A stretch of 64,000 nt of DNA, from NCBI GenBank assembly GCA_964016885.1, contig OZ024742.1, positions 112,716,001-112,780,000 on the forward strand. The letters run 5' to 3'. This document shows, in pieces, positions 8,055 to 60,587 of this stretch. This DNA is from Eledone cirrhosa. Lineage: Eukaryota. The notes below the pieces were generated by a model. That model was not told the origin of the DNA, made no database searches, and saw only the letters and a program-made list of their open reading frames with translations. The position numbers were made by a program, and so were the translations under genes. How positions within the stretch are numbered: position 1 is the stretch's first letter; every line of letters starts with the position of its first letter.

Positions 8055-8970
8055 TAATAACAATAACAATAATAATAATAAGAAGAAGAATAAGAAGAAG
8101 GGGAGAAGACGCACGTGGTGGTAGAAGGTCATGAAATCGCTCCCGTAAGTTTTTGATTTTTAACATTTAAATCAATTTTGAAATAACAATTCTTAGTACA
8201 AATGATGCATAAATCACCGAATCAAGTCTCATAAAAATTCGGATCCATAATATATTGTTATATCGCTCAAATATACAATTTTCTATTATATATTTTATAT
8301 TCAAAAAAGAAAATGGTTATAAATGGAAGAAAACCCCCTCTGTCTACACTATATAGAACAGCCAAATAACAGCAATTTCACCAACATCAGAAACTATATA
8401 CCCCACCTACCCCGTCACCCCGCTGTGTACACTAAATATAACAGCCAGATAACGGCAATTTCACCACCACCACCACCAATCCGAGCATCATAATAATAAT
8501 TACTATTATTATTGTCTCAAGTTTTAACAAAATGTTTAAATCCAATATTAAGAAAATTCGTCATCACATATATTAAACATACGCGACACAAACGCATAGA
8601 TACTACAGATCAAACAAAACTAGTCTATTCGACAAAACTCAGTAACGACAACGCCACCGCCGCCAACACTCCATCCATCATTGCTACCACAATCCCATCA
8701 CCGCCGCCACCACTCCTTCATTGCTACCACCACTATTCCCCTGTTAACTTAAGAAAGGGCAAGGTGGCGGTATCACTAGAAAAGGGAGAGGCTAGCAAAA
8801 GATATAAATATATTGACTTAGTGACCCGGCCAGCGGCCAAACGTCAACAACTATGGCACTGCTGGCTCCCCCCTTCCCCACCAACAATATAAGAAGCCCC
8901 AGCACCACCACCACCGACATAGCCAACAACAATAACAGGCAACTTCAGCAAAAAGTATATTATATTATTG

Positions 8971-12100: not shown

Positions 12101-12250
12101 GAAATGGCAAGAAAAGCCTCTGTATGGAAAATACTCAGAGCGAGCTAACAATCCTGATGTTGATAAAACTTTAACCTATCAGTGGTTGGCATCCTCTTGT
12201 CTCAAATCGGTGACTGAAGGACTGATTATATCCGCACAAGATCACAAGAT
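9106..12250 (+). mobile_element. R4/Dong-clade family B, copy B2, with 5' UTR, 3'-truncated, decayed
   Basis: N-terminal KWSREHNKEV motif and RT (EQKGCK, WIDYKKAFDS, HLFYMDDLKL); overlaps B1 and B3 sequence; ends at SAQD. Confidence 0.92.
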
Positions 12251-24065: not shown

Positions 24066-26581
24066 TCCGAATGTACCAATGTGTACATGGGCAAACCGCA
24101 ACGGCTCATCTAGATCGTATTTTAGATAGGGTATTCTGTAGGGAAACAGATAAGGCTAGTGTAAATTGTCCACAATTTAAAGTAGTCCAGTACACGGACC
24201 ACACATTCGTGACCTTTGAGGTTGACTTAGATAGACTCCATAGGCAAGGGCCCGGTTACTGGAAGCTGAACGCGTCTTTACCGGCGCGCAAAGCTTACAG
24301 AGACCGGATTAGCGAATTAGTTTAGCGTGCGTTGACGAGTGCGATCATTAACAACAGGTGTTGGTTTACCCTGAAAATGGCTATTAGAGAAGAATCGATA
24401 AGGTTTAGCAAAGAAGTAGTGATAGAGGAAAATAGAGTAGAGGGAGAGCTAGTTAGAAAAGCAGAAGATCGTTTAGGACAGGCATCGCAACCAACGTTCT
24501 TGCGTCGAGATTGGCACTCGACCAATTCTTTTACGCAAAGCAGAAGGCTGCGTAGTCAGAGCTAGAGCGCTTGATCTAAGACACGAGGGGACGAAAGCCG
24601 TTCAATGGGCCCGGCTGGTGGAGGCGCGACGTGGCAACAATTCCACAATACGGTTTTGCCTGATCAAAACGAGTTCATACTGCTCGAATTCGAGCAGATG
24701 TGTGCGGCTTTTCAACAGCACTTTTCTCGATTACACGGGTGCGGTAGCGGGCAGGTTCGGAGTATGGACTTCGGTGCGAACTTCGACTGATTGCCGCGGC
24801 TCTCGACGACCGCAGCACAGTGCTGCAAAAGGCCTATAACAGCAGGTGAAATACGGGAAGCGATGTATAACTGCACGAGGGGTAAATTGCCAGGTTTGGA
24901 TGGTCTACTCTACGAGCTTTATGCGTACATCCCAGACTTGTTCGGCGACCTCTTGGCAGATATCTATTGCAACTGGCAGCAGAACGGAAGCATTCCCAGT
25001 GTTGTGAGCCGGGGAGCGGTAGCGCTACTGAGAAAAGATCCGAACAAAGGGGGCGTTATAGATAACTCAGGCCCATAACTCTGCTAAACACATAGTTCAA
25101 CATTTTGGCCAATGTGTTAGCAAAGAGATTGGCGCTTGTCGTCGGTGATCTGGTGGGAGAGGTGTAGACATGCACCATTCCGGACAGATCTATCCACGAT
25201 AACCTCCATCTCATGCGATACATCATAGAGAGGGTGGTTAAGGAATATGGCACAGGTGGAGCCCTGATCAACTTCGAGTGACCATCGGTACCTGGCTGCG
25301 GTCCTTGAGGTGGCCGGTTTCAGACCAGCATTTAGAGGCTGGATCGCTGCGATGCACAGCGACATCTGCTCGAATGTGATGGTGAATGGTTACCTGTCTA
25401 AGCCGTTCGGCATCATTCGCTCGGTCCACCAAGTTTGTCCACTCTCGTCCCTCTTGTACATACCGGCCCTCGAGCCATTACTGCACAAATTGGAGACCAA
25501 GAAGTGGGTCCCCGCGAAACGTCGGTAGGCTTGCAACTCGGCACCTGGAGAGGCAAGTCCATGTCCTCCGAAAGGGGAAGGACCGTTTAAGTTGCTCGGA
25601 GTTTGGTTCGGTCCCGACCTCCAGATGGTAAAAAAAACTGGAGCTCGGAAGCTGGAATGTCTCCAAGCGCTCACCGCTCTCTACCAGTTGGTTACTGATA
25701 TCGGTGGAACATCCACCTTGGCGTTCTATAGAGGGCTAATAGAGGGGTAAAGCAATGGCGAATAAGATCCACTGTTTGCTCTCTTCAAGAGAACTTTCAT
25801 TCCGGGTCTTATGGTCAATTTCCAGAAATCCTTGGCCTGGCAGTACTACCAGGAAGCTTTGGATGTTCTGGATAATATCTACAGGGACGGAGGTGCTGTC
25901 AGGCTGTCAGCCGAGTCTGTCCGAGATGCGCTCAGGACGACAAAACCGTCCTGCACACACTTGTTCAGTGCCCAAAGTTTGGTGACTTGTCGAACAGTCG
26001 CTGTCGCGTGTAGGACGGATACGGTTATCGATGCAGTCCATTGTGCAGATAGCACCGCCATCCGCCTTTAAACAGGAGGAATGGTAAGCAGTGTTCAACT
26101 GCCTGGTGGCCATGGCGAAAGAGATTGTGTGGTGAAAGGTTGAAAGGCTTGAAGAAAGACACTTTCCTCTACGGCCAATCCCTAATTAACTTTTTCAAGT
26201 TTCACTTGAAGAGCAAACTTAGGGTGGAAAGGCAAGAGCTGGCTTCTAGTAAGCTTGTTGAAAGGTGGGTGAAAGTGGCGAATCTTGTCCGAGTGAACGG
26301 TTCCATTCTGAGTATGCGCCTGTAGTCTGCGGAGTGGCAAAGCTGAGAGAGGGCGCTTGCCCTGGTGTCCAGGTTGGCCGTGGTCTTTTGTGTGGTTTTC
26401 GCCAAAAATGACCCTCCGTGTTTTCCCCTATTGGGGGAAATTTTTGTTGTTTGAATTTTAATTTATTTTACAGGTTTCTGTCTTTTAAAACCTTTTTACA
26501 CGGCCAAAACCCACTTTGTATCGTCCTGTGCTGTCTGTAATGTGTTTCTTCATGTTAGCCACTGTGGCCAATAAATAAACC
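24066..26581 (+). mobile_element. Tx1/L1-clade copy T2, 5'-truncated, internally deleted, decayed
   Basis: GPGYWKLNAS, GK.PGLDGL, SIHDNLHLMRY and FFKFHLK match ORF2 38220-41639; the 3' end CCACTGTGGCCAATAAATAAACC is followed by (ATT)n. Confidence 0.92.
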
Positions 26582-26619
26582 ATTATTATTATAAAGTAGA
26601 AACAATTATTATAATTATT

Positions 26620-29600
26620 GTTCTTTGAGTTGCAGTCATTGATTTTATTTAACTGGAAAGTTTGTTGAAAAGAATATCAAGCCACTACCTGCAGCCTCAG
26701 ATATTCAGGACGTATCGGAGGGGGCGGGACCAATTTTCTTTAACCATCCTTGGAAACTCTTTGAGATAGTACCTAGTGCGCCTATGATAAACGGGACCAC
26801 TTTGCAGTTCCAAATCCTTTTTACCTCCCACTTTAAATCCTGGTATCGGTTTTTTTTCTCCCTCTCCTTCTCTTTCACTCTCGTGTCGAATGGGCAGGCT
26901 ACATCCACAAACATGCACGATCTTTTTTCCTTGTCCAAAACCACCAGGTCAGGTCTATTGTTTTCCAGTTTCTTGTCTGTATGTATCCTAAAATCCCACA
27001 ACACCTTCACCTGATTGTTTAACTTCACCGACTCTGGCTTATGCTCATACCACTTCTCAGAATGTGGTAAATTGTTTACTTTGCATAGGTCCCAGTGGAT
27101 CACCCTGCCCATCACATCATGTCTCCAGCCTTTATAGTGAGTCTGGGCTAGGTGTTTACACTCGGATACAATGTGAGCCACAGTCTCCTCTCTCTCTCCA
27201 CAGATCCTACACAGTGGGATAGCCTCCTCCTTGTAAATATGGTGCTTCAGCCACTTCGTTTTGAGGGCCTGCTCTTGCGTAGTCATTAGCATTCCTTCTG
27301 TAGCATTTTAAAGGTCTCCTCTTTTCAACCAGTTCCATGTCTGTGGATCTCTGAATTCAGTTTTCTCAAAGAAGGTACTATGAAGGGATTTTTCATGAAG
27401 GTTGCTCTTTCTCCTTGTTGTTATTTCCTCCCTGGACATCCCCTGGTTTATTTTCCTCTCCTTCAGTACAATTCTGAGCATTGGCTCCCTACTGCCAGTC
27501 ACGTATTTGTGTAGGTTGTTTTTCTCCATCTGAACACAGTCCTCTATGCTGATAAGACCTCTTCCAACTTCAGATCTCCTTAAGTAGAGTATATCGACAT
27601 CACTTCTTTTGTGGAGCATGTTGTAAATAATCAATAGCTTCCTAGTCTTCCTATCCATTTCTTTTTGTTCAGCAACGTTCCATCTCAGAATTCCCGCACT
27701 GTACCTAATAATAGACACAGCTCGGGAATTTACAGCACTTATGGCATTCCTACAGTTCAGATGTGACTTTAATACGCTCCTTACTCTCCGAAGGTATTCA
27801 GTTCTTATCAATTCCTTCATTTTTTTGTTATTGATGTCATCAGCCTCCAGAACGCCCAAAATACTTGTATCCTTCCTCAGAGTCAATTTCCTTTATCATC
27901 TCACCTGTTGGTATCTGGATTCCGTTACTTCTGCTCAACTTACCCTCCTCATCACAATGACTCCACACTTACTAATACCAAATTGCATACATATACCATT
28001 GCTGAAAATACGGACAGTGTCAACAAGCACATCCAACTCCTTCTCACTCTTCCCGAAGAGCTTAAGATCGTCCATGAAGAGGAGGTGATTGATGGTAAGT
28101 CCTCCCTTTCCCAACCTGTATCCTGCTCTCACTTTTCGAAGTACACTGGTCAGGGGACTCAGGGCAAGGACAAACAACAGAGGGGACAGACTCTCTCCCT
28201 GGAAGATACCTCTCTTGATCTTCACGCTTCCCAAGGATTCTCCAGTTGAAGTTAACTCTGTTTCCCAGGACTTCATACTTTTGCCCAACAACTGTCTGAT
28301 GTTATCTGCCACCTTCAAGATCTCCAGGCTTTTGGTGATCCAAGAATGAGGCACCATGTCAAATGCCTTTTTGTAGTCTATCCATCCCATGGCAAGTCCA
28401 GTGTGTCTCCTCTTGCAATTCCTCATTACCATCTTATCAATAAGTAACTGGTCCTTTGTATCACGCGACTTCTTTCGGCATCCTTTCTGTTCGTCCGGTA
28501 ACACGTTGTTTGTGTGGAGGTGATGGTAGATTTCCTCAGACATAATGCTTGTCAACAGTTTCCACATTACGGACAGACATGTGATAGGTCTATGCTTGGT
28601 AACATCATTACCCTTGATTCGGTCTTTCATTATCAGAACTGTGGTACCTTTTGTCAACCACTCTGGTACCTCACCTGACATCAAGCAGTCATTGAATATG
28701 GTTGTCAGTTTCGGGTGGAGGGATGTTATATGTTTAATCCAATACCCCTGCACACCACCTGGGCCTTCTGATTTCCAGTTGGTTAGTTATTTGGCCTGCC
28801 CCTTAAGAGTTTCAACTGTGATACTTAAATCAGTTTGTTGGCGTGCCTGTTCACTGATCTCCTTCTGTACTGTCTCAATCCACACTGCCTGGTCATTATA
28901 TTTAACATCCTGCTCCCATATTCCTCTCCAGAATGTTTTAGTTTGTTCCGCCTCAGGGATCAAGTCGTTGCCTCTTTCTTTCCCTTCAATCTGTCCAAAC
29001 AACATCTTCTGGTTGTTGTCGAACATGCGGTTGTGTCTATACTGACTGGCTCTCTTCTCGTATCGCCTGATTTTTGAACTCTTTGCTACAATGCGTTGCT
29101 TCAGTTCTTCTATGATAATATTTAGATTTTTTCTCCTAGTTTTGTACTTTATTTGCAGTCTACTTTTAGTTTCTATGTTTTTTACTGTCCCATTCAGTAG
29201 GGACACAAGCTTTCCAATGTCATTTCTCATTTCCCTGATTTGACCACTCAGTCGTTTCTTCCACCAAGGCTCTGCTCTTTCTTGTCTGTTGTTTCCTCTC
29301 GCTTTTATACCAAGTAGTCTCCTCACCGTATTTGCTGTTGCTTTGAGGATATTGTTGCACTGGTGAAGGCTCCTCGCCTCAAGGTATGGGATGACTTTGT
29401 TTACCTTAGCTGTTGTTTCTTTTAACTGTTTCCTATCTACAAATCTTTGGTTCATAGGTCTCCCACTATCATTGTTCAATTCATCTAACACTAAGTTTAG
29501 GATATCAACCAAATCTTGTCCTAGCCCATCAGCATTCATCTCCTCAGTGGCCGTATCTCAGTTCCAGGTACTATTTATCTCAGCATTCAGATCATTGTCT

Positions 29601-30160
29601 GCTTCGGGTGGTTCCTCCGTTCTCTAAACCTCTTCACCTTCATTTCCCACTGTCTCATTTGCCTGGCATAGTCCACTCTCCATCTCCAAGCTAATCTCTC
29701 TGCTCAGTTCCTCCAGTACCAGCTCGCTTATCCACCGATTAGTTCTTATTACCCGAGCCTGCTCGGCCAATTTTTGTTCATCTAATTTAAATAGACCAAT
29801 CTCGTTCCAGATCTTATGCATCCGTTTCCTATAGCCTTTCTCCATGGGGTTACTCTTCACGTAATATTGCATAACAGTACTATTCAATTCTTTCGTCCAG
29901 TTGGTTCTGGTTGCTTTCCTTCTTCTTCTTCCTCCGACACCAGCAGTATTTGGTTGACAGCCAGGTCCCTGCTGCTGAGCCAGGGAGCACCTGTTGGGTG
30001 AGAGTTTGTCACATGACATTCTAGTCTCCATTTCACCGTTATTCGAACTGTTTAGGTTCGACATTTAAACACTCTTATCGAGGATTGGCGAATGTCTGGT
30101 TACATGACCACCGGTGAATTCATCGTCTCCGGTGGTTTCGTCACTCCACGTGACTTTTGT
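26620..30160 (-). mobile_element. R4/Dong-clade family A, copy A2, near full length, decayed
   Basis: ORF start at 30064 (RTNWTKELN..VMQYY..GYRKRM..IW..EQKLAEQAR), then RT, CCHC and RLE fragments; tail-to-tail with T2. Confidence 0.93.
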
Positions 30161-30686
30161 GTGGCACCATCACGCTGTAGACGAATACAAATAAACACAC
30201 AAACAAACAGGCAGAAAAAACCCCAACAATGAATAAGCATAAATTTCGTTGTAATGTAGTGTTTGAATGTCTGACATTAGTTTTTCCCTTCCCTTCTCTG
30301 TCCGCCTGTTTGTTTTTCTCTTCATTCTTATTTTCTTTACGTTTTTCGTCGTTGCTGTGCTGCTTTGATTTTGATTTTGGTTTTTTTAATTTGACCGGTC
30401 TTCAATTCAGTCTATTTATATATTTTGATGCCTTCCTCTTTTAGTGAGAATTCTACAAAGTAGCAGGGGCTAGCGGGAGAGAATAGCGGCGGTAGTGATA
30501 TTGAGGCAGTTGTCGTGATGGTGGTGGTGGTGCTGTGCTAGCAGGAGGTAGTGGGAGAGATAAGCGGCGGTAGCGATAATGAGGCAGTGGTGGCGGTGAT
30601 GTGGTCGTATTACTGTAGTGATGGTGTTGAAGTTGGAGTAGAAATTTGAGTCGACTTGACCAGATTATTATTATTATTATCCAGAC

Positions 30687-30717
<31 letters not shown>

Positions 30718-30729
30718 GTTATTGTTATT

Positions 30730-33700
30730 CCTTGAATCTCAGTCATTGATGTTGGTTAACTGGAAAGTCCGTTGGATTGAATATCAAGCTACTACCTGCA
30801 GCCTCAGATATTCAGGACGTATCGGAGGGTTATTGCCGTTCCAAGCAAGCATGCCTTTTGAAGCGTTCCAAAAAGCGTGAAGGGGCCGATTTTCTTTAAC
30901 CATCCCTGGAAACCTTTGGAGATAGTCCCCAGTGCGCCTATGACAATCGGGATCACTTTGACTTCATGGCAGTTCCAAATCCTTTTCACCTCCCACTTTA
31001 GGTCCTGGTATCGGTTAATGTTCTCCCTCTCCTTCTCTTGCACTCTCGTGTCGAACGGGCAGGCCACATCCACAATCAGGCACGATCTTTTTTCTTTGTC
31101 CACAACCACCAGGTCAGGTCTATTGTGTTCCAGTTTTTTGTCCGTCTGTATCCTAAAATCCCACAGCACCTTCACCTGACTGTTCTCCATCACCGCCTCT
31201 GGCCTATGCTCATACCATCTCTCAGAATGTGGTAGATTGTTTACTTTGCACAGGTGCCAGTGGATCACCCTGCCCATCACATCGTGTCTCCAGCCCTTAT
31301 AGTGGGTCTGGGCTAGGTGTTTACACTCAGACACAATGTGAGCCACAGTCTCCTCTCTCTCTCTACAGATCCTGCACAGTGGGCTAGCCTCCTCCTTGTA
31401 GATATGGTGCTTCAACCACTTCGTTTTGAGGGCCTGCTCCTGCGCAGCCATTAGCATTCCTTCTGTAGCCTTTTTGAGGTCTCCTCTTCTCAACCAGTTC
31501 CATGTCTGTGGATATCTAAATTCAGTTTTCTCAAAGAAGGTACTATGAAGGGATTTTCCCTTAAGGCTGCTCTTCCTCCTTGATGTTATTTCCTCCTTGG
31601 ATATCCCCTGGCCTACTGTCCCCTCCTTCAGTACAGCTCTGAGCATTGGCTCCTTACTATAGGTCACGTATTTGTATAGGTTGTTTTTCTCCATCTGAAC
31701 ACAGTCCTGTATGCTGATAAGACCTCTTCCACCCTCAGATCTCCTTAGGTAGAGTCTATCGACATCACTCCTCTTGTGGAACATGTTGTAGATAGTCAAT
31801 AGCTTCCTAGTCTTCCTATCCATTTCTTTTTGTTCAGCAACATTCCATCTCAGAATTCCCGCACTGTACCTAATAATAGACACAGCTCGGGAATTTACTG
31901 CGCTTATGGCATTTCTGCTGTTCAGATGTGACTTCAATACGCTCCTTACTCTCTGAATGTATTCAGTTCTTAACAATTCCTTCATTTTTTTGTTCTTTAT
32001 GCCATCAGCCTCCAGAACGCCCAAATACTTGTATCCTTCCTCAGAGTCAATTTCCTTTATCATCTCACCTGTTGGTATCTGGATCCCGTTACTTCTGCTC
32101 AACCTACCCCTCTTCATCACAATGACTCCACATTCACCAATACCAAACTGCATACATATATCACTGCTGAAAATACGGACAGTGTCAACAAGCACATCCA
32201 ACTCCTTCTCACTTTTCCCGAAGAGCTTAAGATCGTCCATGAAGAGGAGGTGATTGATGGTAAGCTCTCCCCTTCCCAACTTGTATCCTGCTCTCACTTT
32301 TCGCAGCATAATGGTCAAGGGCATCAGGGCAAGGACAAACAACAGAGGGGACAGGCTATCTCCCTGGAAGATACCTCTCTTGATCTTCACGCTTCCCAAG
32401 GATACTCCAGTTGTTGTCAACTCTGTCTCCCAGAACCCCATACTCCTGCCCAGCAACTGTCTGATGTTATCTGCCACCCTGAAGATCTCCAGGCTTTTGG
32501 TGATCCAGGAATGAGGCACCATGTCAAATGCCTTTCTGTAGTCTATCCATCCCATGGCAAGATCAGTGTGTCTCCTCCTGCAATTCCCCATTACCATCTT
32601 ATCAATAAGCAACTGGTCCTTTGTACCACGTGACTTCTTTCGGCATCCTTTCTGTTCGTCCGGTAACAAGTTGTTTGTGTGGAGGTGATGGTAGATTTCC
32701 TCAGACACAATGCTCGTCAACAGTTTCTACATTACGGGCAGACATGTGATAGGTCTATAGTTGGTAACATCATTACCCTTGATTCGGTCTTTCATTATCA
32801 GAACTGTGGTACTTTTTGTCAACCACTCTGGCACCTCACCCGACACCAAGCAGTCATTGAACATGGCCGTCAGCTTCGGGTGGAGGGATGTTAAATGTTT
32901 AATCCAATACCCCTGCACACCATCTGGGCCTGGTGATTTCCAGTTGGTTAGTTTTTTGGCTTGCCCCTTAAGAGTTTCAACTGTGATACTCAAATCAGTC
33001 TGTTGTTGTGCCTGCTCACCGATCTCCCTCTGTACTGTCTCAATCCACCCTGCCTGGGCATTGTGTCTAACATCCTGCTCCCATATTCCTCTCCAGAATG
33101 TTTTAGCTTGTTCCGCCCCAGGGATCAAGTCGTTGCCTCTTTCTTTCCCCTCAAGCTGTCCAAACAGCATCTTCTGGTTGTTGTCGAACATGCGGTTCTG
33201 TTTATACTGACTGACTCTGTTCTCGTATCGCCTGATTTTGGCACTCTTTGCTACAATGCGTTGCTTCAATTCCTCTATGATAATATTTAGCTTTTTACTC
33301 CTAGTTTTGTATTTTATTTCCAGTCTATTTTTAGTGCCTATGTATTTTAGTGTCCCATTCTGTAGTGACTCAAGCTTTCCTATGTCATTTCTCATTTCCC
33401 CGATTTGCCCACTCAGTCGCTTCTTCCACCACGGCTCTGCTCTTTCTTGTCTGTTGTTTCCTCTCGCTTTTATACCAAGTAGTTTCCTCACCGTATTTGC
33501 TGTTTCTTTGAGGATATTGTTGCACTGGTGAAGACTCCTCGCCTCAAGGTATGGGATGACTTTGTTTACCTTAGCTGTAGTTTCTTTTAACTTTTCCCTG
33601 TCTACAAATCTTAGGTTCATAGGTCTCCCACTATCATTGTTCAACTCATCTACCACTAAATTTAGGATGTCAACCGAATCTTGTCCTAGACCGTCAGCAT

Positions 33701-33838
33701 TCATCTCCTCAGTGGCCGTATCTCTGTTCCAGGTATTATTTATCTCAGTATTCAGATCATTGTCTGCTTCGGGTGGTTCCTCCGTTCTCAGGACCTCCTC
33801 ACCTTCATTTCCCGCCGGCTCGCTTGTCTGGCATACTA

Positions 33839-33840
<2 letters not shown>
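30730..33840 (-). mobile_element. R4/Dong-clade family A, copy A3, 5'-truncated, young
   Basis: ORFs 32727-33974 and 30804-32720 are in one frame, separated by a single TAG; (TAA)n on both sides. Confidence 0.95.
30804..33840 (-). pseudogene. R4 family A RT-CCHC-RLE ORF with one nonsense codon
   Basis: [52 protein letters not shown]; the TAG at 32727 is TGG in A1 and A2. Confidence 0.9.
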
Positions 33841-33886
<46 letters not shown>

Positions 33887-33900
33887 TATTATTATTATTA
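33841..33900 (-). repeat. (TAA)n tract between B3 and A3
   Basis: About 20 units. Confidence 0.97.
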
Positions 33901-35878: not shown

Positions 35879-36110
35879 TTATTATTATTATTATTGAATG
35901 CCATGGTTGACGGAGGCTCGGCTCTGTAAGGTATAGTAATTTTTAACCGATAAAACAATTGTGAATTGTTTAAAACTTGAACCAAATTGTTGATAAAGAC
36001 ACCCTCCTCCTCGTGAGAAGGGTCTTTCTGTCCGTTATTTGGCCCTTCGGAGTTAAATAACCAGTTATTGGGGTTTTGTACCCAAAATTTCATTTTAAAC
36101 AAAAAACAAC

Positions 36111-38184: not shown

Positions 38185-38219
38185 GTGGTCTTTCCCATCT
38201 TTTCCACTCTATTTTAAAC

Positions 38220-41200
38220 ATGACCTCACTCAGAATAGGCAGCATAAATGCGCGTGGCTTGGGGTCGTCATGGAAGCAGGGTCACCTGCTCAACGACCTC
38301 AGGTCACTAAACATAGATGTAGTGGCCATCAGCGAGACCAGAATCTCCGAAGCACGGGCCTTCGCACCGATCTTCGGCGGCTACGATGTGTACGCATCTC
38401 CCAGCCGTCCTGGATCCGGTGGAGGAGTTGCTGTACTTTTTCGGAGAGGTTTGGATCTCGCCATACGGGCCATCTTCCTGGACCCAGAGGGTAAGCTGGT
38501 GGTGCTGGACGTGACCAGCGGAGACGGGCAAGCTTTCAGGCTAGTGGCCGTCTATGCCCCGACAGGAGCAGGGCGGCCTGATTTCTTCCGGCGTCTGGAG
38601 ACCTTTCTTGGAACGTCCCGCTCTTTAGTGTTAGTGGGCGACTGGAACGGGATCTTAGATGCACGCTGGGACTGTGTGGGATTAGCGGATAGGGGTGGAG
38701 GGTGCAAGAGCCTCACCAACCTGCTCAGGCGTTTTGAACTGTCTGACAGGTACCGATTGGATTTCCCGAATGTGCCAATGTGGACTTGGACAAACCGCAT
38801 AGGGTCATCCAGATCATATCTAGATAGAGTATTTTGTAGGGAAATAGATAGGTCTAGCATAGGCTGTCCACAATTCAAGATAGTCAGCTACACGGACCAC
38901 AAATTCGTGATCTGTGTGCTTGACTTAGATAGGCTTCATAGACGAGGACCCGGCTACTGGAAGCTAAACGCGTCCTTACCAGCGCGCAAGGCCTACAGAG
39001 ACCGGATTAGCGAACTAGTTAAGCGGGCGTTGACGGGGGCCATCGTCAACAACAAGTGGTGGTTTGCTCTGAAAAGAGCGATTAGAATAGAATCGATTAG
39101 GTTTAGTAAGGCTTTAGCAATAGAGAAAAATAGAGCAGAGGGAGAACTAGTTAGAAAATTAGACGAGGCGCTTAGCAAAGGCATTGCGACCGACGTGCTT
39201 GCGGCGAAATTGGCCCTTGACCAATTCTTCAATGCAAAGCACGAAGGCTGCGTTGTCAGAGCTAGGGTGCGTGCTCTCAGACACGAGGGGACGAAAGCCG
39301 TTCAATGGGCCCGAGTGGCGGAGGCGCGTCGTGGCAACAAAGCCACGATCCGGTCTTTGGTGGACCACGACGGGCGCATGCTACTCGATCCCGGGCAAAT
39401 GTGTGAAGCTTTTCAGCGACACTTCGCTCAGCTGTTCGGGGGCAGCGGGGGGCCGGGTAGAGGGATGGACTTTAGTGTCTACCTCGACGGGCTGCCGCGG
39501 CTCTCGGCCACTGAGGCGAGGTGTTGCGAAAAGCCGATAACAGCCGCTGAAGTACGGGAGGCAATGACTGGCTGCACAAGGGGTAAATCGCCTGGTTTGG
39601 ATGGTCTGCCCTATGAACTTTACGTACAGATGCCAGACTTGTTCGGAGGCCTCTTGGCGGACGTCTACTGCAACTGGCAACAGAACGGGAGAATTCCCAG
39701 TTCTGTGAGCCGAGGAGCGGTGGCACTGCTGAGAAAGGATCCGAACAAGGGGGATAACATAGACAATTTCCGGCCCATAACTCTGCTAAACACAGAGTTT
39801 AAGATTTTGGCCAAGGTGCTAGCAAAGAGGTTGGCGCTTGTCGTTGGTGGTCTGGTGGGAGAGGCGCAGACATGCGCCATTCCCGACAGATCCATCCACG
39901 ACAACCTCCACCTCATGCGATACATCGTAGAGAGGGTAGCTAGGGAACCTGGCACGGGTGGGTCCTTGATCAATTTAGATCAGTCGAAAGCTTTCGATAG
40001 GGTCGACCATCGTTACCTAGCGGCAGTCCTGAGGGCGGCTGGCTTTGGGCCCGTCTTCAGAGGCTGGATCGCTGCCATGCACAGCGACATCTGCTCTGTG
40101 GTGAGAGTGAACGGTCACCTGTCGGAACCGTTCAACATCATGCGCTCGGTCCGCCAAGGATGTCCCCTCTCGTCCCTCTTGTACGTATTGACTCTCGAGC
40201 CATTACTGCACAAACTGGAGACGTTGAGGGGAGTCCCGCGCGAACTAGGATGCGGAAGATCCGTGTCAGCATATGCGGACGATGTCACCGTAGTGGTGTC
40301 GAACGCCAAACACATCGAGGCGATCGGCACTACACTAAGAGAATACGAAGCGGTGACAGGAGCAATGATCAACCAGGAAAAGTCAGTGGGCCTGCAGCTC
40401 GGCACCTGGAGAGGCAGGTCCATGCCGTCCAACAGCGTCGTCGGGCGCTGGACGGACGGACCGGTTAAATTGCTAGGGGTCTGGTTCGGTCCGGACCTCC
40501 AGACGGACAAAAACTGGGACGAGGTGACGAGCAGGGTGGCTTCTCTCACCCAGAAATGGGCGGAGAGGAAGCTATCCCTGAAAGGTCGAGCGGAGGTGGC
40601 TAACGCGTACATCGCGTCTGTCATCTGCTACCGCCTAACCGTCGTACCTTGTCCTAAGCCTCGCCTGACTGCGCTGGAGCGTTTGCTCTTTCGCTTTTTG
40701 TGGAAGGGACGTGCTCCGATGGTCAGGCGGTCCATCTGTTGTCAACACCCGCTACGTGGAGGGCTGGGCATGCCGTGGCTGATGATGCGCAGGCACGCGC
40801 TCAGGCTACGACATCTCCACCTCTTCCTCGACGGTGATCAGGTGTGGTCGCCGTTTGCTAGACGCGTTTTTCCCCAGCTCGTTTCCTTGACGGAGCTGCA
40901 GTCCTGGGTCAAGCGAAGACCGAGAGGGAGCGCCTGGAGACTGGAATGTCTTCAGGCGCTCACAGCCCTCGACCAATCGGGCAATGTGATCGGTGGAAAC
41001 TCCACCTCGGCGTTCTATAGAGGATTAGTGGAGGGGAAGAGCGACGACGTACTTGGGGAAACTCTAGGCGTCGACGAAAATCAACTAGCCAATCTCTTCG
41101 GAAGAACTTTCGGGCCAGGGCCTATGGACAACTTCCAGAAATCTCTGGCCTGGCAGTGCTACCGAGGAGCCTTGCCAGTTCGGGATAAACTCTACAGGCA

Positions 41201-41639
41201 TGGAGGTGCCGTCAGCCGGGCATGTCCGAGATGCGCGCAGGGCGACGAAACCGTCCTGCACGCACTCGTCCAGTGTCCGAAAATTGCTGACTTGTGGGTT
41301 TATGTCGAACACCTGCTGTCGCGTTTAGGACGGATCCAGCTATCATCTGAGTCCATCGTGAGGATTGCCCCGCCCTCCTCCTTTAGCCGGGAAGGGCAGG
41401 CAGTTTTTATCTGTCTGGTGGCCATGGCGAAAGAGATAGTATGGTGGACACGTTTGAAAGGGCTGAAGACGAGCACTTACCTCTTCGGTGATGCTCTGAT
41501 TGACTTTTTCAAATTTCATTTGAAAAGGAAAATCAGAGTAGAGAGGGAAGTGCTCTCTTCCCAGCATTTTGTTGAAAGATGGGTGAGAGAAGCAAGAATG
41601 GCCCGAGTGAATGGGCCGACTCTGAGTATATATCTGTAA
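38220..41639 (+). CDS. Tx1 ORF2: APE endonuclease + reverse transcriptase + C-terminal CCHC, intact (1139 aa)
   Basis: SINARG, SETR, GDWN, SYLDR, TDH; KSPGLDG, FRPITLLN, DQSKAFDRV, RQGCPLS, YADD; CPRC..DETVLHALVQC. Confidence 0.96.
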   Translation: MTSLRIGSINARGLGSSWKQGHLLNDLRSLNIDVVAISETRISEARAFAPIFGGYDVYASPSRPGSGGGVAVLFRRGLDLAIRAIFLDPEGKLVVLDVTSGDGQAFRLVAVYAPTGAGRPDFFRRLETFLGTSRSLVLVGDWNGILDARWDCVGLADRGGGCKSLTNLLRRFELSDRYRLDFPNVPMWTWTNRIGSSRSYLDRVFCREIDRSSIGCPQFKIVSYTDHKFVICVLDLDRLHRRGPGYWKLNASLPARKAYRDRISELVKRALTGAIVNNKWWFALKRAIRIESIRFSKALAIEKNRAEGELVRKLDEALSKGIATDVLAAKLALDQFFNAKHEGCVVRARVRALRHEGTKAVQWARVAEARRGNKATIRSLVDHDGRMLLDPGQMCEAFQRHFAQLFGGSGGPGRGMDFSVYLDGLPRLSATEARCCEKPITAAEVREAMTGCTRGKSPGLDGLPYELYVQMPDLFGGLLADVYCNWQQNGRIPSSVSRGAVALLRKDPNKGDNIDNFRPITLLNTEFKILAKVLAKRLALVVGGLVGEAQTCAIPDRSIHDNLHLMRYIVERVAREPGTGGSLINLDQSKAFDRVDHRYLAAVLRAAGFGPVFRGWIAAMHSDICSVVRVNGHLSEPFNIMRSVRQGCPLSSLLYVLTLEPLLHKLETLRGVPRELGCGRSVSAYADDVTVVVSNAKHIEAIGTTLREYEAVTGAMINQEKSVGLQLGTWRGRSMPSNSVVGRWTDGPVKLLGVWFGPDLQTDKNWDEVTSRVASLTQKWAERKLSLKGRAEVANAYIASVICYRLTVVPCPKPRLTALERLLFRFLWKGRAPMVRRSICCQHPLRGGLGMPWLMMRRHALRLRHLHLFLDGDQVWSPFARRVFPQLVSLTELQSWVKRRPRGSAWRLECLQALTALDQSGNVIGGNSTSAFYRGLVEGKSDDVLGETLGVDENQLANLFGRTFGPGPMDNFQKSLAWQCYRGALPVRDKLYRHGGAVSRACPRCAQGDETVLHALVQCPKIADLWVYVEHLLSRLGRIQLSSESIVRIAPPSSFSREGQAVFICLVAMAKEIVWWTRLKGLKTSTYLFGDALIDFFKFHLKRKIRVEREVLSSQHFVERWVREARMARVNGPTLSIYL

Positions 41640-41924
41640 ACTAAAGGTGGAAAACTGGGAGAGGGCACTTGCCTTGGTGGTCAGGGTCATTGTGGCTTTT
41701 TACTGGGCTTTCTCCACAAATGTCCCTCCGAAGTCTCCCCCCTATTGGGGAATTTTTCATTGTTATTTTCATTGTTATTTTTGTTACATCCTCTGTTTTT
41801 GTTTTTTTACACGCAGAAATGCCCATTTGTACCGTCCTGCATTGTCCTGCACTGTCCTTAATGTCTACTTTATGTAAACCCTTGTGGTTAATAAAGAAAT
41901 CATTATTATTATTATTATCCAGAC

Positions 41925-41955
<31 letters not shown>

Positions 41956-41967
41956 GTTATTGTTATT

Positions 41968-44900
41968 CCTTGAATCTCAGTCATTGATGTTGGTTAACTG
42001 GAAAGTCCGTTGGATTGAATATCAAGCTACTACCTGCAGCCTCAGATATTCAGGACGTATCGGAGGGTTATTGCCGTTCCAAGCAAGCATGCCTTTTGAA
42101 GCGTTCCAAAAAGCGTGAAGGGGCCGATTTTCTTTAACCATCCCTGGAAACCTTTGGAGATAGTCCCCAGTGCGCCTATGACAATCGGGATCACTTTGAC
42201 TTCATGGCAGTTCCAAATCCTTTTCACCTCCCACTTTAGGTCCTGGTATCGGTTAATGTTCTCCCTCTCCTTCTCTTGCACTCTCGTGTCGAACGGGCAG
42301 GCCACATCCACAATCAGGCACGATCTTTTTTCTTTGTCCACAACCACCAGGTCAGGTCTATTGTGTTCCAGTTTTTTGTCCGTCTGTATCCTAAAATCCC
42401 ACAGCACCTTCACCTGACTGTTCTCCATCACCGCCTCTGGCCTATGCTCATACCATCTCTCAGAATGTGGTAGATTGTTTACTTTGCACAGGTGCCAGTG
42501 GATCACCCTGCCCATCACATCGTGTCTCCAGCCCTTATAGTGGGTCTGGGCTAGGTGTTTACACTCAGACACAATGTGAGCCACAGTCTCCTCTCTCTCT
42601 CTACAGATCCTGCACAGTGGGCTAGCCTCCTCCTTGTAGATATGGTGCTTCAACCACTTCGTTTTGAGGGCCTGCTCCTGCGCAGCCATTAGCATTCCTT
42701 CTGTAGCCTTTTTGAGGTCTCCTCTTCTCAACCAGTTCCATGTCTGTGGATATCTAAATTCAGTTTTCTCAAAGAAGGTACTATGAAGGGATTTTCCCTT
42801 AAGGCTGCTCTTCCTCCTTGATGTTATTTCCTCCTTGGATATCCCCTGGCCTACTGTCCCCTCCTTCAGTACAGCTCTGAGCATTGGCTCCTTACTATAG
42901 GTCACGTATTTGTATAGGTTGTTTTTCTCCATCTGAACACAGTCCTGTATGCTGATAAGACCTCTTCCACCCTCAGATCTCCTTAGGTAGAGTCTATCGA
43001 CATCACTCCTCTTGTGGAACATGTTGTAGATAGTCAATAGCTTCCTAGTCTTCCTATCCATTTCTTTTTGTTCAGCAACATTCCATCTCAGAATTCCCGC
43101 ACTGTACCTAATAATAGACACAGCTCGGGAATTTACTGCGCTTATGGCATTTCTGCTGTTCAGATGTGACTTCAATACGCTCCTTACTCTCTGAATGTAT
43201 TCAGTTCTTAACAATTCCTTCATTTTTTTGTTCTTTATGCCATCAGCCTCCAGAACGCCCAAATACTTGTATCCTTCCTCAGAGTCAATTTCCTTTATCA
43301 TCTCACCTGTTGGTATCTGGATCCCGTTACTTCTGCTCAACCTACCCCTCTTCATCACAATGACTCCACATTCACCAATACCAAACTGCATACATATATC
43401 ACTGCTGAAAATACGGACAGTGTCAACAAGCACATCCAACTCCTTCTCACTTTTCCCGAAGAGCTTAAGATCGTCCATGAAGAGGAGGTGATTGATGGTA
43501 AGCTCTCCCCTTCCCAACTTGTATCCTGCTCTCACTTTTCGCAGCATAATGGTCAAGGGCATCAGGGCAAGGACAAACAACAGAGGGGACAGGCTATCTC
43601 CCTGGAAGATACCTCTCTTGATCTTCACGCTTCCCAAGGATACTCCAGTTGTTGTCAACTCTGTCTCCCAGAACCCCATACTCCTGCCCAGCAACTGTCT
43701 GATGTTATCTGCCACCCTGAAGATCTCCAGGCTTTTGGTGATCCAGGAATGAGGCACCATGTCAAATGCCTTTCTGTAGTCTATCCATCCCATGGCAAGA
43801 TCAGTGTGTCTCCTCCTGCAATTCCCCATTACCATCTTATCAATAAGCAACTGGTCCTTTGTACCACGTGACTTCTTTCGGCATCCTTTCTGTTCGTCCG
43901 GTAACAAGTTGTTTGTGTGGAGGTGATGGTAGATTTCCTCAGACACAATGCTCGTCAACAGTTTCTACATTACGGGCAGACATGTGATAGGTCTATAGTT
44001 GGTAACATCATTACCCTTGATTCGGTCTTTCATTATCAGAACTGTGGTACTTTTTGTCAACCACTCTGGCACCTCACCCGACACCAAGCAGTCATTGAAC
44101 ATGGCCGTCAGCTTCGGGTGGAGGGATGTTAAATGTTTAATCCAATACCCCTGCACACCATCTGGGCCTGGTGATTTCCAGTTGGTTAGTTTTTTGGCTT
44201 GCCCCTTAAGAGTTTCAACTGTGATACTCAAATCAGTCTGTTGTTGTGCCTGCTCACCGATCTCCCTCTGTACTGTCTCAATCCACCCTGCCTGGGCATT
44301 GTGTCTAACATCCTGCTCCCATATTCCTCTCCAGAATGTTTTAGCTTGTTCCGCCCCAGGGATCAAGTCGTTGCCTCTTTCTTTCCCCTCAAGCTGTCCA
44401 AACAGCATCTTCTGGTTGTTGTCGAACATGCGGTTCTGTTTATACTGACTGACTCTGTTCTCGTATCGCCTGATTTTGGCACTCTTTGCTACAATGCGTT
44501 GCTTCAATTCCTCTATGATAATATTTAGCTTTTTACTCCTAGTTTTGTATTTTATTTCCAGTCTATTTTTAGTGCCTATGTATTTTAGTGTCCCATTCTG
44601 TAGTGACTCAAGCTTTCCTATGTCATTTCTCATTTCCCCGATTTGCCCACTCAGTCGCTTCTTCCACCACGGCTCTGCTCTTTCTTGTCTGTTGTTTCCT
44701 CTCGCTTTTATACCAAGTAGTTTCCTCACCGTATTTGCTGTTTCTTTGAGGATATTGTTGCACTGGTGAAGACTCCTCGCCTCAAGGTATGGGATGACTT
44801 TGTTTACCTTAGCTGTAGTTTCTTTTAACTTTTCCCTGTCTACAAATCTTAGGTTCATAGGTCTCCCACTATCATTGTTCAACTCATCTACCACTAAATT

Positions 44901-45076
44901 TAGGATGTCAACCGAATCTTGTCCTAGACCGTCAGCATTCATCTCCTCAGTGGCCGTATCTCTGTTCCAGGTATTATTTATCTCAGTATTCAGATCATTG
45001 TCTGCTTCGGGTGGTTCCTCCGTTCTCAGGACCTCCTCACCTTCATTTCCCGCCGGCTCGCTTGTCTGGCATACTA

Positions 45077-45078
<2 letters not shown>
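41968..45078 (-). mobile_element. R4/Dong family A, copy A4 (duplicate of A3)
   Basis: Translations identical to A3, including the TAG. Confidence 0.95.
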
Positions 45079-45124
<46 letters not shown>

Positions 45125-45138
45125 TATTATTATTATTA

Positions 45139-47116
45139 CAGTTGCATTTATCTTGCTTTATGTTCATACGAGTTATCACCAAGACACAACCAGTGACCTC
45201 AAGAGACAACAAGGTCCGCCATGTTCAAGAAAGAACATACATATTCACACATGCATCTTTAGTGTTTAGACTGGTGATGTACTTATGTTGACAAAATCTT
45301 CCTTAGTATATGGGCAGTTCCCATTAATACTCTCTTTTGTATTTCTTCTATACGCGGGTTTCCTGGGATTTGCGATATGTAATCATTAGACCCCTTAGGT
45401 ATCATTCCCAGAGCGCCTACAACCACTGGTATGTTTTAGTTCTCAATTTCCAAATTTTTCCAATTTCTATCTCCAGGTCCTTATACTTGCTCAATTGTTC
45501 AAATGTTTTTATAGATACATTCTTGTCTATTGGAACAGACATATCAATTAGCAGGCATACCCTCTTTTGAAAGTCCTTCAATATTATATCAGGTCTGTTT
45601 GCATCTATTTTTCGGTCTGTTTGGATGCTAAAGTTCCACAAGATTGAGATGTGATCTTTTTCAAGTATGGGAGGTGGTTGATGCTCACACCAATTCTTTT
45701 GATGGGGCAGGTCAATATGCTTACACATTATCCAATGTATGTATTGTGCAGCTCTGTCATGCCTGTTTAGGTATTCGGTTGGAGCTATAGGACTACACAT
45801 TGAAATTATATGGTCAATGGTCGCTGGTTGTTTTTTACATACACGGCATAATGGGCTGCACCAATTTTTTATTATGTTGGCTTGGTAATTTTTTGTTGGC
45901 AGACACTGATCTTGTGCCGATATAATCAGTCCTTCAGTCTCCGATTTCAGTCCAGAGGATGCCAACCACTGATGGGTTAAAGTTTTGTCAACATCAGGAT
46001 TGTTAGCTCGCTCTGGGTATTTTCCATACAGAGGCTTTTCTTGCCATTTCTTAGCCAGTTTCTGTAGCAGTTCTTTCTTTGCAGTTACTTTTACCTGCTT
46101 TGCCTTTTCTGTGTTTTCCATTTCAGCAGTAAATGGGACTTCAGGAATGTGTAGTCCATTACTGTATCTTTGTGCATATTTTGTAATGGAGTATCTTTTG
46201 ATGCTTTCGTGTTTCAAAACGAGTTTGATCATCCAATCATGTGATTCCCTTAGATATGTAGATAATCCAATTGTTGCAGTTTTCAACGCAATGTATAACT
46301 GGATTAACCCACGTCCTCCTTCTTTCCTAGGGAGATATATTCTATCTATATCTGCCTTAGGGTGATGCATTCTGTGCATGGTTAAGAATTTTCGGATTTT
46401 TTTATCGAGCCTACGGACCTCTGTGCTTGACCAGTTGATGACATAGTAACTGTAGGTTACTACTGGTATGGCAATCGTGTTTATGGCATCGATCCTATTC
46501 CTTGCATTCAATTCCGTTCTTAAGATTGCTCTTACTCTGCGGTAACATTCCTTCCTTATCCTTTCCCTCATTGTCGAGTGCTTGATTCCGTCTCCTTCAC
46601 AAACACCTAGATATTTGTAAGTTTTTTCTTGATCAAGTTCTCTTATCACGTTCCCCCGATCAAGATTAATGTCTGAACTCTTCAGCAGCTTTCCTCTGGT
46701 GAACGTTGCTTTGGCGCATTTGTCTAGTCCAAACTCCATTTTAATGTCATCACTGAACTGCTTCACAGTGGATAATATCCCTTGCAATTGTTCATCATTT
46801 TTTGCAAATAGTTTCAGGTCATCCATGTGGAACAGGTGATTAATGGTTTTGTCATAGATTTTATATCCATGTTTTGTTTCATTGAGCATTTTACTTAATG
46901 GTATAAGTGCGATGCAGAATAAAAGCGGTGATAAAGAGTCAACCTGAAAAATTCCACATTTAATATTAACTTCTCCAGCTTCCAGTGATTTTGTTTCACT
47001 ATTCAAAAGGAGTGTCGTTTTCCATGTCTTCATACTTGAATGACAAAAACCTCCTGACAATGGGGGATACTTTGAACATCTCTAAACATTTTTCAATCCA
47101 ACTGTGTGGCAAACTA
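45139..47116 (-). mobile_element. R4/Dong family B, copy B4 (duplicate of B3)
   Basis: Translations identical to B3. Confidence 0.94.
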
Positions 47117-47133
47117 TTATTATTATTATTATT

Positions 47134-50100
47134 GAATGCCATGGTTGACGGAGGCTCGGCTCTGTAAGGTATAGTAATTTTTAACCGATAAAACAATTGT
47201 GAATTGTTTAAAACTTGAACCAAATTGTTGATAAAGACACCCTCCTCCTCGTGAGAAGGGTCTTTCTGTCCGTTATTTGGCCCTTCGGAGTTAAATAACC
47301 AGTTATTGGGGTTTTGTACCCAAAATTTCATTTTAAACAAAAAACAACATGGCTACGACAAAGAAATTTCATACGTCACTCCCACTCATTCCGTCTTCTT
47401 CTTCCTCAATCATCACTACAGCAGAGAGAAGATTGTCTCTCTCCCTCCCTTCTTTAAATGTGTCTCTCTCCCTCCCTTCTCTTTCGCAAGTGACGAAAGA
47501 AAAGAAAAGTCTCGTGCAAAGCGTGCAAGGTTTCTCCACGACGACGACGACAGCGACGAAACAGGTGTGCGGGAAATACGAAAACCCAGTTCATTCGTCT
47601 GACGTCAGGAATAATAGCAGTAGCAGCCGTAATAACAACAGCAACAGTGACAATGAAAACAACAGTAGCAGCCGCAACAGCATCACCAGCAGCATAAACA
47701 ACAACAGCATTAGCAGCAGCAACACCAACAACAACCACAGCAACAGCGGCGGAGGCAGTAGTCGTAGTACCTGCAGCAACAACAAAAGTACCAGCAACTC
47801 TGACGACAACAACAACAGCAGAGAAAAACCAATCTCATTTGCAGGTATTGCGAAAAACTTGGAAACAATCCTCATAACAAATGAGGAATTAGAGGAAGCG
47901 AAGAAGATGGTGACAAAGAACGGACACCGAGCAATCTGCAAGGCAGCGGAAAAAATTTTCGAAACGCAAGAGCACTGTACGGTCACGTACCGTACAGTAA
48001 GTACAAAATCCCGTAGGGTGGAAAGAGCCACAGAGGCCCAAATACAAAAAGCCTTGGGGTTTGTGTGACAGCGGAAAACGCACATCACCCGAGGCAAAAA
48101 ATATGCCACCGTAGACGTACTTTTTGCCACACCCCAGGAGGCAAAGTCCCAATCAGTAGTGACCCTAAGGAGCGAGGAAATGGTGTTGGTGCCCTCCTAC
48201 TGCGGGCAAAAAAATTGTGAGGGTCAAACTGACCCACGTCCCCCCCGGAATGAGCCCTTCTTGGCTGGCCGCGTCTGTCCTCGTCGGAATCGAGGACAAA
48301 ACAACTGTACTGCAAGTACAGAGAAAAGTAAGAGAAGATTGGGTCGGCTCCTCCATTGAGATGCTAATCCAAACCAACCAGGAGTGCGTCGAAGCTATCC
48401 CGGATGTGATAGACTTCGATAACGGCACTCAACTGCCCATAAGTGTTGAGGGCAAACGCCCGAAATGCTTTCGCTGTGGATCGAAGACTCACCTCAGGGG
48501 CTTCTGCAACGAGAAGACCCTGAGAAAGGAGAAAACCCCCCTCCTTCCGAATCCGGCTCCACGGCTACCAGCAACAGGACAAGCGGCAACCAGGAACGAT
48601 AGGTCCGTGGCACCCATACCCACTCCACAGAAATCAAAAACAGCAGCAGCAGTGGAAATATTAACAACAACGACAGCAATACCAAATGCAGCTGCAACAG
48701 AGACTCCAGTGCAAACATCACCAACAACAACAAGTGAAAGAGTGGAGCTGGTACCCCTCCCCGACCTCACAGAATCAGACATGGAGTGTGAGGTGGGAGA
48801 GGGATGGCAAAAGGTCGCAAGAAGGCACAAACGCAGAAGCAGCGCATCGTCGCCTTTGAAAAGGGAGGAAAGAAATGAGAAAAGGGTAAAGTCTACTGCA
48901 AAGAGACCCACAGCAGCAACACCGGCACCACCATCACCACCGGCGACAACCCCACCGCCAACAACACCTTCAACACCACCACCACAAGCACCAACATCGC
49001 AAACACAACAACAAAACACACACACCCAGCAACAACGACAAGAAAATAGCAGAACCACACCCCACCCCCAGAAAAACAAATGCACGGCAATAAACACACA
49101 CAACAAGAAACTAATGACTTACATAATTGAACACACAGACATTTCACAACAGGACTACATAATACCAGCACCAATCAAAACGCCAACTAACATAAGACTG
49201 CTAAAAATAGCACAGACACAATACACAAACATTAAAACGAAATTCCCCAACGCAGTTGGTGATTTCAGGGACCTAGGAGGAACCATCAATCGAAGAGTAT
49301 ATTCAGACATTCTCTTAGAAGAGCCGACGACCAGCCGAAGGAACGATTCAACGGTCCCTTCACCAGACGATCAAGTGAAAAGGGATGTAAAAACCATCCC
49401 TCCTCTACCAAAAGTACGGTAAGTGGTCTTTCCCATCTTTTCCACTCTATTTTAAACATGACCTCACTCAGAATAGGCAGCATAAATGCGCGTGGCTTGG
49501 GGTCGTCATGGAAGCAGGGTCACCTTCTCAACGACCTCAGGTCACTAAACATAGATGTAGTGGCTATCAGCGAGACCAGAATCTCCGAAGCACGGGCCTT
49601 CGCACCGATCTTCGCCGGCTACGATGTGTACGCATCTCCCAGCCGTCCTGGATCGGGTGGAGGAGTTGCTGTGCTTTTTCGGAGAGGTTTGGATCTCGCC
49701 ATACGGGCCATCTTCCTGCACCCAGAGGGTAAGCTGGTGGTGCTGGACGTGACCAGCGGAGACGGGCAAGCTTTCAGGCTAGTGGCCGTCTATGCCCCAA
49801 CAGGAGCAGGGCGGCCTGATTCTTCCGGCGTCTGGAGACCTTTCTTGGAACGTCCCGCTCTTTAGTGTTAGTGGGCGACTGGAAAGGGATCTTAGATGCA
49901 CGCTGGGACTGTGTGGGATTAGCGGATAGGGGTGGAGGGTGCAAGAGCCTCACCAACCTGCTCAGGCGTTTTGAAATGTCTGACAGGTACCGATTGGATT
50001 TCCCGAATGTGCCAATGTGGACTTGGACAAACCGCATAGGGTCATCCAGATCATATCTAGATAGAGTATTTTGTAGGGAAATAGATAGGTCTAGCATAGG

Positions 50101-52842: not shown

Positions 52843-52930
52843 CTTAATTCTATACATGTATAATTACTAGAAACTACGCATCGAGTCCTCATTCGGGTGA
52901 ATATATAGTAACTGGACTTTACAATCCCTC

Positions 52931-54588: not shown

Positions 54589-54649
54589 TATTACACTTGC
54601 GTCTCAAAAATCGATGTTCGAGGTAATTGTATATATATATATATATATA

Positions 54650-54705
54650 TCTACATATATCTATCAATCTATCTATCTATCTATCTCTCTATCTATCTAT
54701 CTATG

Positions 54706-54754
<49 letters not shown>

Positions 54755-54766
54755 GTCTGTCTGTCT
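54650..54766 (+). repeat. (ATCT)n microsatellite, 5' flank of T5
   Basis: Direct sequence. Confidence 0.95.

Positions 54767-60391: not shown

Positions 60392-60587
<196 letters not shown>

Follow-up and report, generated by a model that had tools for sequence, protein, structure and literature searches.

How two unrelated kinds of retrotransposon without long terminal repeats (non-LTR elements) come to face each other across one microsatellite is the question raised by a stretch of 64,000 nucleotides from Eledone cirrhosa (assembly GCA_964016885.1, contig OZ024742.1, positions 112,716,001 to 112,780,000 of the forward strand; hereafter, the window). The window consists of animal-like DNA, is rich in simple repeats, and carries R4/Dong-like elements of two families (A and B) as well as L1/Tx1-like elements (T). 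An earlier note on this DNA had proposed that both kinds share one (TAA/ATT)n target in opposite orientations and thereby form an array that extends itself. We found that the pattern is real, that half of it is already known, and that the junction count is inflated by a duplicated block; every junction coordinate quoted earlier holds on re-inspection of the sequence. What is newer is a small group of Tx1-like elements whose two microsatellite targets, both used in one register, have apparently gone unreported. Our joint reading, to which we give a probability of roughly 70%, is that R4-like and Tx1-like elements enter one (TAA/ATT)n repeat oppositely, that R4 tails add target, and that a second A-B-T block arose by crossover or by an assembly switch.

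The A and B elements have a single open reading frame (ORF) in which a reverse transcriptase (RT; RVT_1) precedes a CCHC motif and, at the C-terminus, a restriction-like endonuclease (RLE), and the motifs CRIC..H..SEC and RPD..D are seen in their translations. Their best structural matches are R2 proteins, via the C-terminal nuclease region (profile positions 396-1105), and the two families are ~39% identical to each other in protein sequence. The R4/Dong label fits this architecture, with no named R4/Dong reference among the homologue matches; all R4-like copies in the window are truncated or broken. The T elements have two ORFs, of which ORF2 encodes an apurinic/apyrimidinic-type endonuclease (APE; Exo_endo_phos), an RT (RVT_1), and a C-terminal zf-RVT domain. 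LINE-1 ORF2p is the nearest solved relative of T3 ORF2 (E 7e-113, far above R2), and this ORF2 (38220-41639) is the only one still open among the window elements. ORF1 is broken, in T3 as well, and has no Pfam match, with a CxxCxxxxHxxxxC motif visible in T1 and T3. The Tx1 label fits this architecture, no named Tx1 reference being among the homologue matches.

On the R4-like side, all five independent intact 3' ends continue into (TAA)n on the sense strand (A1 at 8055, B1 at 4513, A2 at ~26620, A3 at 30730, and B2 at 33900); B0 has lost its 3' end at 12244, where there is no TAA run. These runs alone are no proof of a target because the tail is partly element-encoded: A1 and A3 have a common variant tail, TAACAATAACAA, which implies that part of the R4-A tail belongs to the element. 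It is the 5' ends that decide, and TAA is found at four of the six. B1, B2, and A3, all of them truncated, start directly after (TAA)n, and A1 starts after TAA + A17. The ends point to insertion of R4/Dong-like elements into a repeat that is sense (TAA)n on both sides, as is already known for Dong.

On the Tx1-like side, sense (ATT)n was found at 3363, 26582, 35877-35895, 41902, and 47115-47133. The claim had been that every observable T1-T4 end meets (ATT)n, the exceptions being the 5' end of T2 (truncated) and the 3' end of T4 (deleted). The junctions are real, but those at 35877 and 47115 are one junction copied, so that four of six independent ends agree and the same two ends are the misses. 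T elements meet R4 5' ends twice and R4 3' ends twice. To gauge chance, positions no more than 5 bp from a run of three or more TAA-type units make up 0.6% of the window once the duplicate is set aside, giving a post hoc probability of 2e-8 for at least four of six T ends; all 60 matches of (ATT)4 in the window lie at R4 ends, with 0.02 expected from shuffles; and phase agreement among the T-ATT junctions has a chance of ~1/27. T2 and T3 carry AATAAA six bases before the 3' junction and have no poly(A). Three earlier claims are upheld: the presence of two types of nuclease (by domain and structure matches, an APE in T and an RLE in the A and B elements), the opposite orientation of the two kinds on one repeat (by the junctions), and the role of the repeat as target rather than mere tail (by the truncated 5' ends that adjoin it). 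The head-to-head and tail-to-tail arrangement of R4-Tx1 junctions would be an automatic consequence of entry on opposite strands and is no separate evidence.

A third Tx1-like family, T5, had been missed earlier. It has (ATCT)n at both ends and no R4 element beside it, and long runs of GATA type occur in the window only as its flanking arrays. At their 3' ends, T2, T3, and T5 align, TGTGG and 14 further nucleotides being followed by ATT, ATT, and ATCT, respectively, while the 5' ends of T1, T3/T4, and T5 start with G after T, ~210 bases before the first ATG. These alignments place six observable junctions in one T|AT register. With four of six T1-T4 ends at ATT and both T5 ends at ATCT, the data suggest sequence-specific insertion of T1-T5, in a small sample.

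The duplicated block bears on all of these counts. Positions 30664-37978 are identical letter for letter to 41902-49216 (7,315 bp), and the next 3,631 bp, where T3 is compared with T4, differ by 49 substitutions and 5 gap columns (1.35%). At that downstream rate, 28 differences would be expected in the 2,083 bp of the T3 and T4 5' parts, and there are 0. The later differences, 13 synonymous and 30 not (neutral share 0.29), look like neutral decay; in the overlap covered by T1, derived letters number 4 in T3 versus 11 in T4. Among letters that are rare in the contigs of a sequencing run (X1, possibly from the window's own source), which represent other genomic copies, ten are common to T3 and T4 in the identical part and four beyond it occur in T3 only. 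Because they lie within the exact duplicate, A4, B3, the T4 5' end, and the junction at 47115 are not new insertions. The duplicate may have been made by unequal exchange or by a haplotype switch in the assembly, and may thus be an assembly error; the simplest reading is that a younger T3, at (ATT)5 beyond A3, was joined to an older T4 via their 5' parts.

The claim of an array that extends itself was only partly retained. At least part of the R4-A tail is encoded by the element, and later copies lie within the tails of earlier ones, but roughly one third of the quoted span, 26550..47140, results from duplication or an assembly switch at the DNA level, not from insertion; a tail made by a Tx1-like element was not found among the T elements of the window. 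Nor is this span one continuous microsatellite-linked array, as had been supposed: it is broken at ~30190-30663, where ~470 bp of non-element DNA and an A2 5' end without TAA separate A2 from the A3 tail. A same-orientation Tx1 fragment hidden in 29900-30664 was considered and rejected, since the stretch consists of the A2 N-terminus and an old dispersed repeat. Read-through at the tail-to-tail junctions might, as proposed earlier, give antisense or double-stranded RNA in the manner of piRNA-cluster-like loci.

Copies and relatives outside the window were also surveyed. Among the joints listed for the X1 contigs (a listing that covers 15 of the 530 joints, 12 of the 110 inserts, and 14 of the 2,213 loose ends), B copies truncated at 34220 and 34298 and an A copy truncated at 42117 each join repeat, and T copies truncated at 36184 and 41633 are preceded by (ATT)n as read along the T sense strand; in one X4 contig, the ATT run in front of the T 5' end continues further. 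Among R4 relatives, 10 of 17 fragment starts have sense (TAA)4+ no more than 300 nt upstream, a distance of at most 4 nt in 5 of these cases, and none of the 17 has the opposite-strand run upstream; some of these starts are internal alignment starts rather than true ends. The Tx1-like relatives with 41% identity, which account for 39 of 42 loci, form head-to-tail arrays, and no TAA/ATT runs were found in 13 Tx1-like loci scanned. A profile search with T gave 64 loci in metagenomes, mostly at 21-35% identity, and 0 in viral contigs. T3 3' DNA was matched in 0 of 5 genomes compared, and the T 3'-end motif had 21 matches in genome contigs, none of them element-related, and 0 in viral contigs.

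Several of the observations weigh against the joint reading. The window offers only four independent T-ATT junctions, each of them common with an R4 end; T orientation alone, at 4 of 4, is not significant (two-sided p = 0.125); ATT is absent from the 5' end of T2; and the 5' ends of A2 and B0 lack a TAA run. Elsewhere, a microsatellite run follows only 3 of 88 overlapping 3' motifs of the relatives at 41% identity, and two further single-copy Tx1-like relatives show no such run. The contig joints, with a repeat side of 20-23 letters where given and 88% likeness, are unreliable by the tool's own flag, and opposite-orientation cases may occur in the remaining 515. Such a small sample, the bare T2 5' end, and the distant relatives that lack a repeat target would suit a view in which R4/Dong alone is target-specific, T loosely prefers AT-rich T|A sites or carries ATT tails later entered by R4, and the orientation is a small-sample effect. 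Tails leave unexplained, however, the ATT before the full-length T1 and T3/T4 5' ends and before truncated T copies, the junction register is fixed across three T families, and T5 has one repeat on both sides that forms long runs nowhere else in the window; we consider this view improbable. We give just as little credence to the suggestion that Tx1-like elements target Dong elements, through their TAA tails or flanks, and not free microsatellites, in the manner of Tx1L and Tx1-Mar, which target other transposons. That all four T-ATT junctions adjoin an R4 end, that every (ATT)4 in the window does so, that the order T-B-A occurs twice independently, and that Tx1 families inserting in transposons have been described would all agree with it, and the window, which holds no free long ATT run, cannot separate the two targets by itself. 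Against it stand T5, which lies in (ATCT)n in the same register with no adjoining R4, and the fact that T met R4 5' and 3' ends twice each, leaving the repeat alone in common and no particular R4 sequence.

The history of the block admits a different reading as well. A rare letter at 39520, common to T3 and T4 in the diverged part, is not predicted by a clean two-copy model, and the left copy of (ATT)5 begins after G, not T. The rare letter, together with the fact that both repeat copies start with exactly (ATT)5, could mean that the block is an older, real tandem duplication, homogenised later over 7.3 kb, in which case the T3 3' junction would be a breakpoint and not an insertion site. This account needs an extra event, leaves the derived letters uneven (4 versus 11), and has T3 end exactly at the family 3' register of T2 and T5, a position that means that ATT followed T there in any case; we regard it as unlikely, if less so than the two views of the target considered above.

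Under the joint reading, the opposite facing of the two kinds likely results from enzymes that cut opposite strands. In target-primed reverse transcription (TPRT), the primer is established to be the bottom strand of the 3' flank (PMC1919474), and in this geometry the (TTA)n strand would supply the primer for R4 and the (AAT)n strand that for T. The R4 nuclease would accordingly nick the (TTA)n strand, and the Tx1-like APE would cut at a T|A step of the purine-rich strand (AAT|AAT in T1-T4, AGAT|AGAT in T5). R4 tails would add target (B1 and then A1; B2 and then A3), on which later copies of either kind could land. Transcripts of the Tx1-like elements probably run on beyond AATAAA into a few repeat units and pair these with the primer, which would explain the lack of poly(A) at T junctions; comparable read-through pairing was noted for R1Bm (PMC1919474). 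A younger T3 would then have inserted at (ATT)5 beyond A3, and a crossover or assembly switch between the T3 and T4 5' parts would have given the second A-B-T block. More tentatively, and as a possibility that we consider less likely than not, one Tx1-like LINE lineage may read a T|A-purine step on the purine-rich repeat strand, have switched between (ATT)n and (ATCT)n, and prime on its own read-through flank units, with the ATT branch living largely on target supplied by Dong tails.

Much of the R4 side has been published: Dong in (TAA)n, molluscs included, is described in PMC3812793, PMC3774820, and PMC7998251. Members of the Dong family of the R4 clade (Bombyx mori Dong, DongAg, snail DongBg, and ostracod Dong) resemble A and B in their single ORF with RT, CCHC, and RLE and in the sense (TAA)n at both ends (PMC3812793, PMC7998251, PMC3774820), and the predicted A2 N-terminus might correspond to that of Dong, which is Myb/SANT-like and has no zinc fingers. 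Nothing essential differs from Dong; in the window, two families nest in each other's tails, all copies are broken, and no 5' hepatitis delta virus (HDV)-like ribozyme was found. For Tx1, the text of PMC4494074 gives microsatellite targets for Kibi, (TC)n, Koshi, (TTC)n, and crocodilian Tx1, (TTCC)n/(TTTC)n; like T, these elements of the L1/Tx1 group have two ORFs and an APE-RT architecture, and the repeat on their sense strand is rich in pyrimidines or in T. By description, T differs in targeting (ATT)n and (ATCT)n, which are not among the targets in that text, whose Fig. 3 and supplements give more. In the literature searched, which did not include Repbase or Kojima and Fujiwara 2004, neither (ATT)n nor (ATCT)n was found reported as a Tx1 target, and an earlier description is possible. 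TRAS1 and SART1 enter (TTAGG)n in opposite directions, and TRAS1 nicks TT|AGG (PMC7265360). They thus resemble the pair in the window in being two families that enter one repeat in opposite directions, and the T|A-purine step of TRAS1 is the one proposed here for T. Both, however, are R1-clade APE elements at telomeres, whereas here RLE and APE elements would share an interstitial trinucleotide repeat. Keno (Tx1, APE) and Utopia (an RLE lineage) share the multicopy U2 small nuclear RNA (snRNA) gene as a target, much as T and R4 share theirs, so that convergence of APE and RLE on one target already has a precedent; unlike here, that target is an RNA gene and not a repeat that the elements themselves lengthen. 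For an octopus, recent activity is listed for both Dong-R4 and L1-Tx1 (PMC13282606), which fits the window and proves nothing.

An RLE element and an APE element would live on one common repeat that is lengthened by one of them, and if the ATT branch does depend on Dong tails, the insertion sites of one retrotransposon would be made by another to which it is unrelated. If the pattern is genome-wide, two microsatellite targets would be added to the L1/Tx1 group, and the T3-type and T5-type APE endonucleases (69% DNA identity), which would differ by one repeat unit in what they recognise, would offer a clean system for target change. The case also shows that such nests readily undergo unequal exchange or misassembly, with inflated counts of junctions as a result. 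The coordinates of the elements and repeats are collected in Table 1.

Table 1. Retrotransposon copies, repeats, and the duplicated block in the window, in order of position.
Feature	Positions	Strand
T1, L1/Tx1-like; intact at 5' end, continues past window edge; 93% identity to T3 in ORF2 region	1..3362	-
(TAA)10 common to T1 5' end and B1 5' end (head-to-head)	3363..3394	
B1, R4/Dong-like, 5'-truncated	3396..4512	+
B1 (TAA)n tail + A17; also A1 5' flank	4513..4556	+
A1, R4/Dong-like, 5'-truncated, broken frames; ~180-bp insert at 4875-5058	4557..8054	+
A1 tail: (TAA/CAA)n then (GAA)n	8055..8100	+
B0, R4/Dong-like; N-terminus present, 3' end lost; 5' flank A-rich, no TAA run; start approximate	9106..12244	+
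T2, Tx1-like, 5'-truncated, no ATT at 5' end; 79% identical to T3	24067..26581	+
Degenerate (ATT)n common to T2 3' end and A2 tail (tail-to-tail)	26582..26622	
A2, R4/Dong-like; ORF from 30064, predicted three-helix N-terminal domain; 5' flank without TAA; 5' limit approximate	26623..30190	-
(ATT)5-ATCCAGACT-(ATT)9; A3 tail and left edge of duplicated unit	30664..30729	
A3, R4/Dong-like (RT, CCHC, RLE), 5'-truncated, one internal stop	30730..33839	-
(TAA)20; B2 tail and A3 5' flank (head-to-tail)	33840..33900	
B2, R4/Dong-like, 5'-truncated	33901..35876	-
(ATT)6 common to B2 5' end and T3 5' end (head-to-head)	35877..35895	
T3, L1/Tx1-like; ORF1 broken, ORF2 open; first 2,083 bp identical to T4	35896..41901	+
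Identical second copy of 30664-37978, made up of repeat, A4, repeat, B3, repeat, T4 5' part	41902..49216	
T4, Tx1-like; ORF2 frameshifted, deleted at 3' end; differs from T3 by 1.35% beyond 49216	47134..52845	+
(ATCT)n array at T5 5' end	54632..54766	
T5, Tx1-like, 69% DNA identity to T3, decayed, both ends present	54767..60392	+
(ATCT)n array at T5 3' end; register as ATT at T2 and T3	60393..60430	

The N-terminus of A2 is modelled as helices (pLDDT, the predicted local distance difference test, >90) that weakly resemble Myb/SANT domains in the prediction. The best matches of the model were Zeste, LUX, TRF1, GT-1, and R2 residues 147-215, at Z scores of only 5.0-6.2; Foldseek gave no match at E 0.001, Pfam gave no Myb match, and no zinc finger was seen in the 146 N-terminal residues read. 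For an HDV-like ribozyme at R4 5' ends, there was no Rfam match, and a loose descriptor found only weak pairings of 5 bp in A2 and nothing in B0, both copies being decayed. Within A1, the repeat at 4875-5058 is a ~180-bp SINE (short interspersed element)-like sequence, with a second copy at 13307-13487 (86% identical). Inside the A3 tail, at 30659-30688, CCAGA occurs twice around (TTA)5, perhaps through a small local duplication or template slip.

T1 and T3 are not alignable at the DNA level in ORF1 and the 5' untranslated region despite their 93% identical ORF2 region, and their ORF1 proteins are 34-47% identical, which suggests a swap of the ORF1 module between them. At least half of the sampled words of the stretch 35600-41930, mostly T3, were found in 11 of 24 listed sequencing runs with 8 organism codes, which suggests that the T3 family is young and widely shared; raw reads of one organism code listed for this stretch failed to align, and runs X22 and X23 gave only 6 and 2 reads. 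Among the distant relatives, eukaryote-like contigs in one bacterial genome record (L065-L103) contain long head-to-tail arrays of open Tx1-like elements with a ~6.4-kb period. These elements are 41% identical to T3 ORF2, combine differing ORF1/5' modules with near-identical ORF2, and have no microsatellite at their junctions; the arrays are possibly self-targeting or telomere-like. Microsatellite-rich eukaryote-like contigs with LINE copies in several further bacterial genome records (L106, L108, L113, L116, L148-L152, L104, L110, and L111) represent host contamination.

Both clusters of the window have the order T-B-A-spacer-R4, and an old repeat, weakly homologous between its two copies (~65%), lies downstream of the A1 tail at 8651-8832 and of the A3 tail at 30392-30576. 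An Rfam scan of the window gave only microsatellite-driven matches below threshold, and a hairpin scan gave nothing convincing; comparison of the window with itself revealed self-complementary stretches of 120-240 bp at 20896-21129, 53420-53537, and 54393-54591. Additional decayed RT and RLE-type fragments lie at 12844-13080 and 14304-14555.

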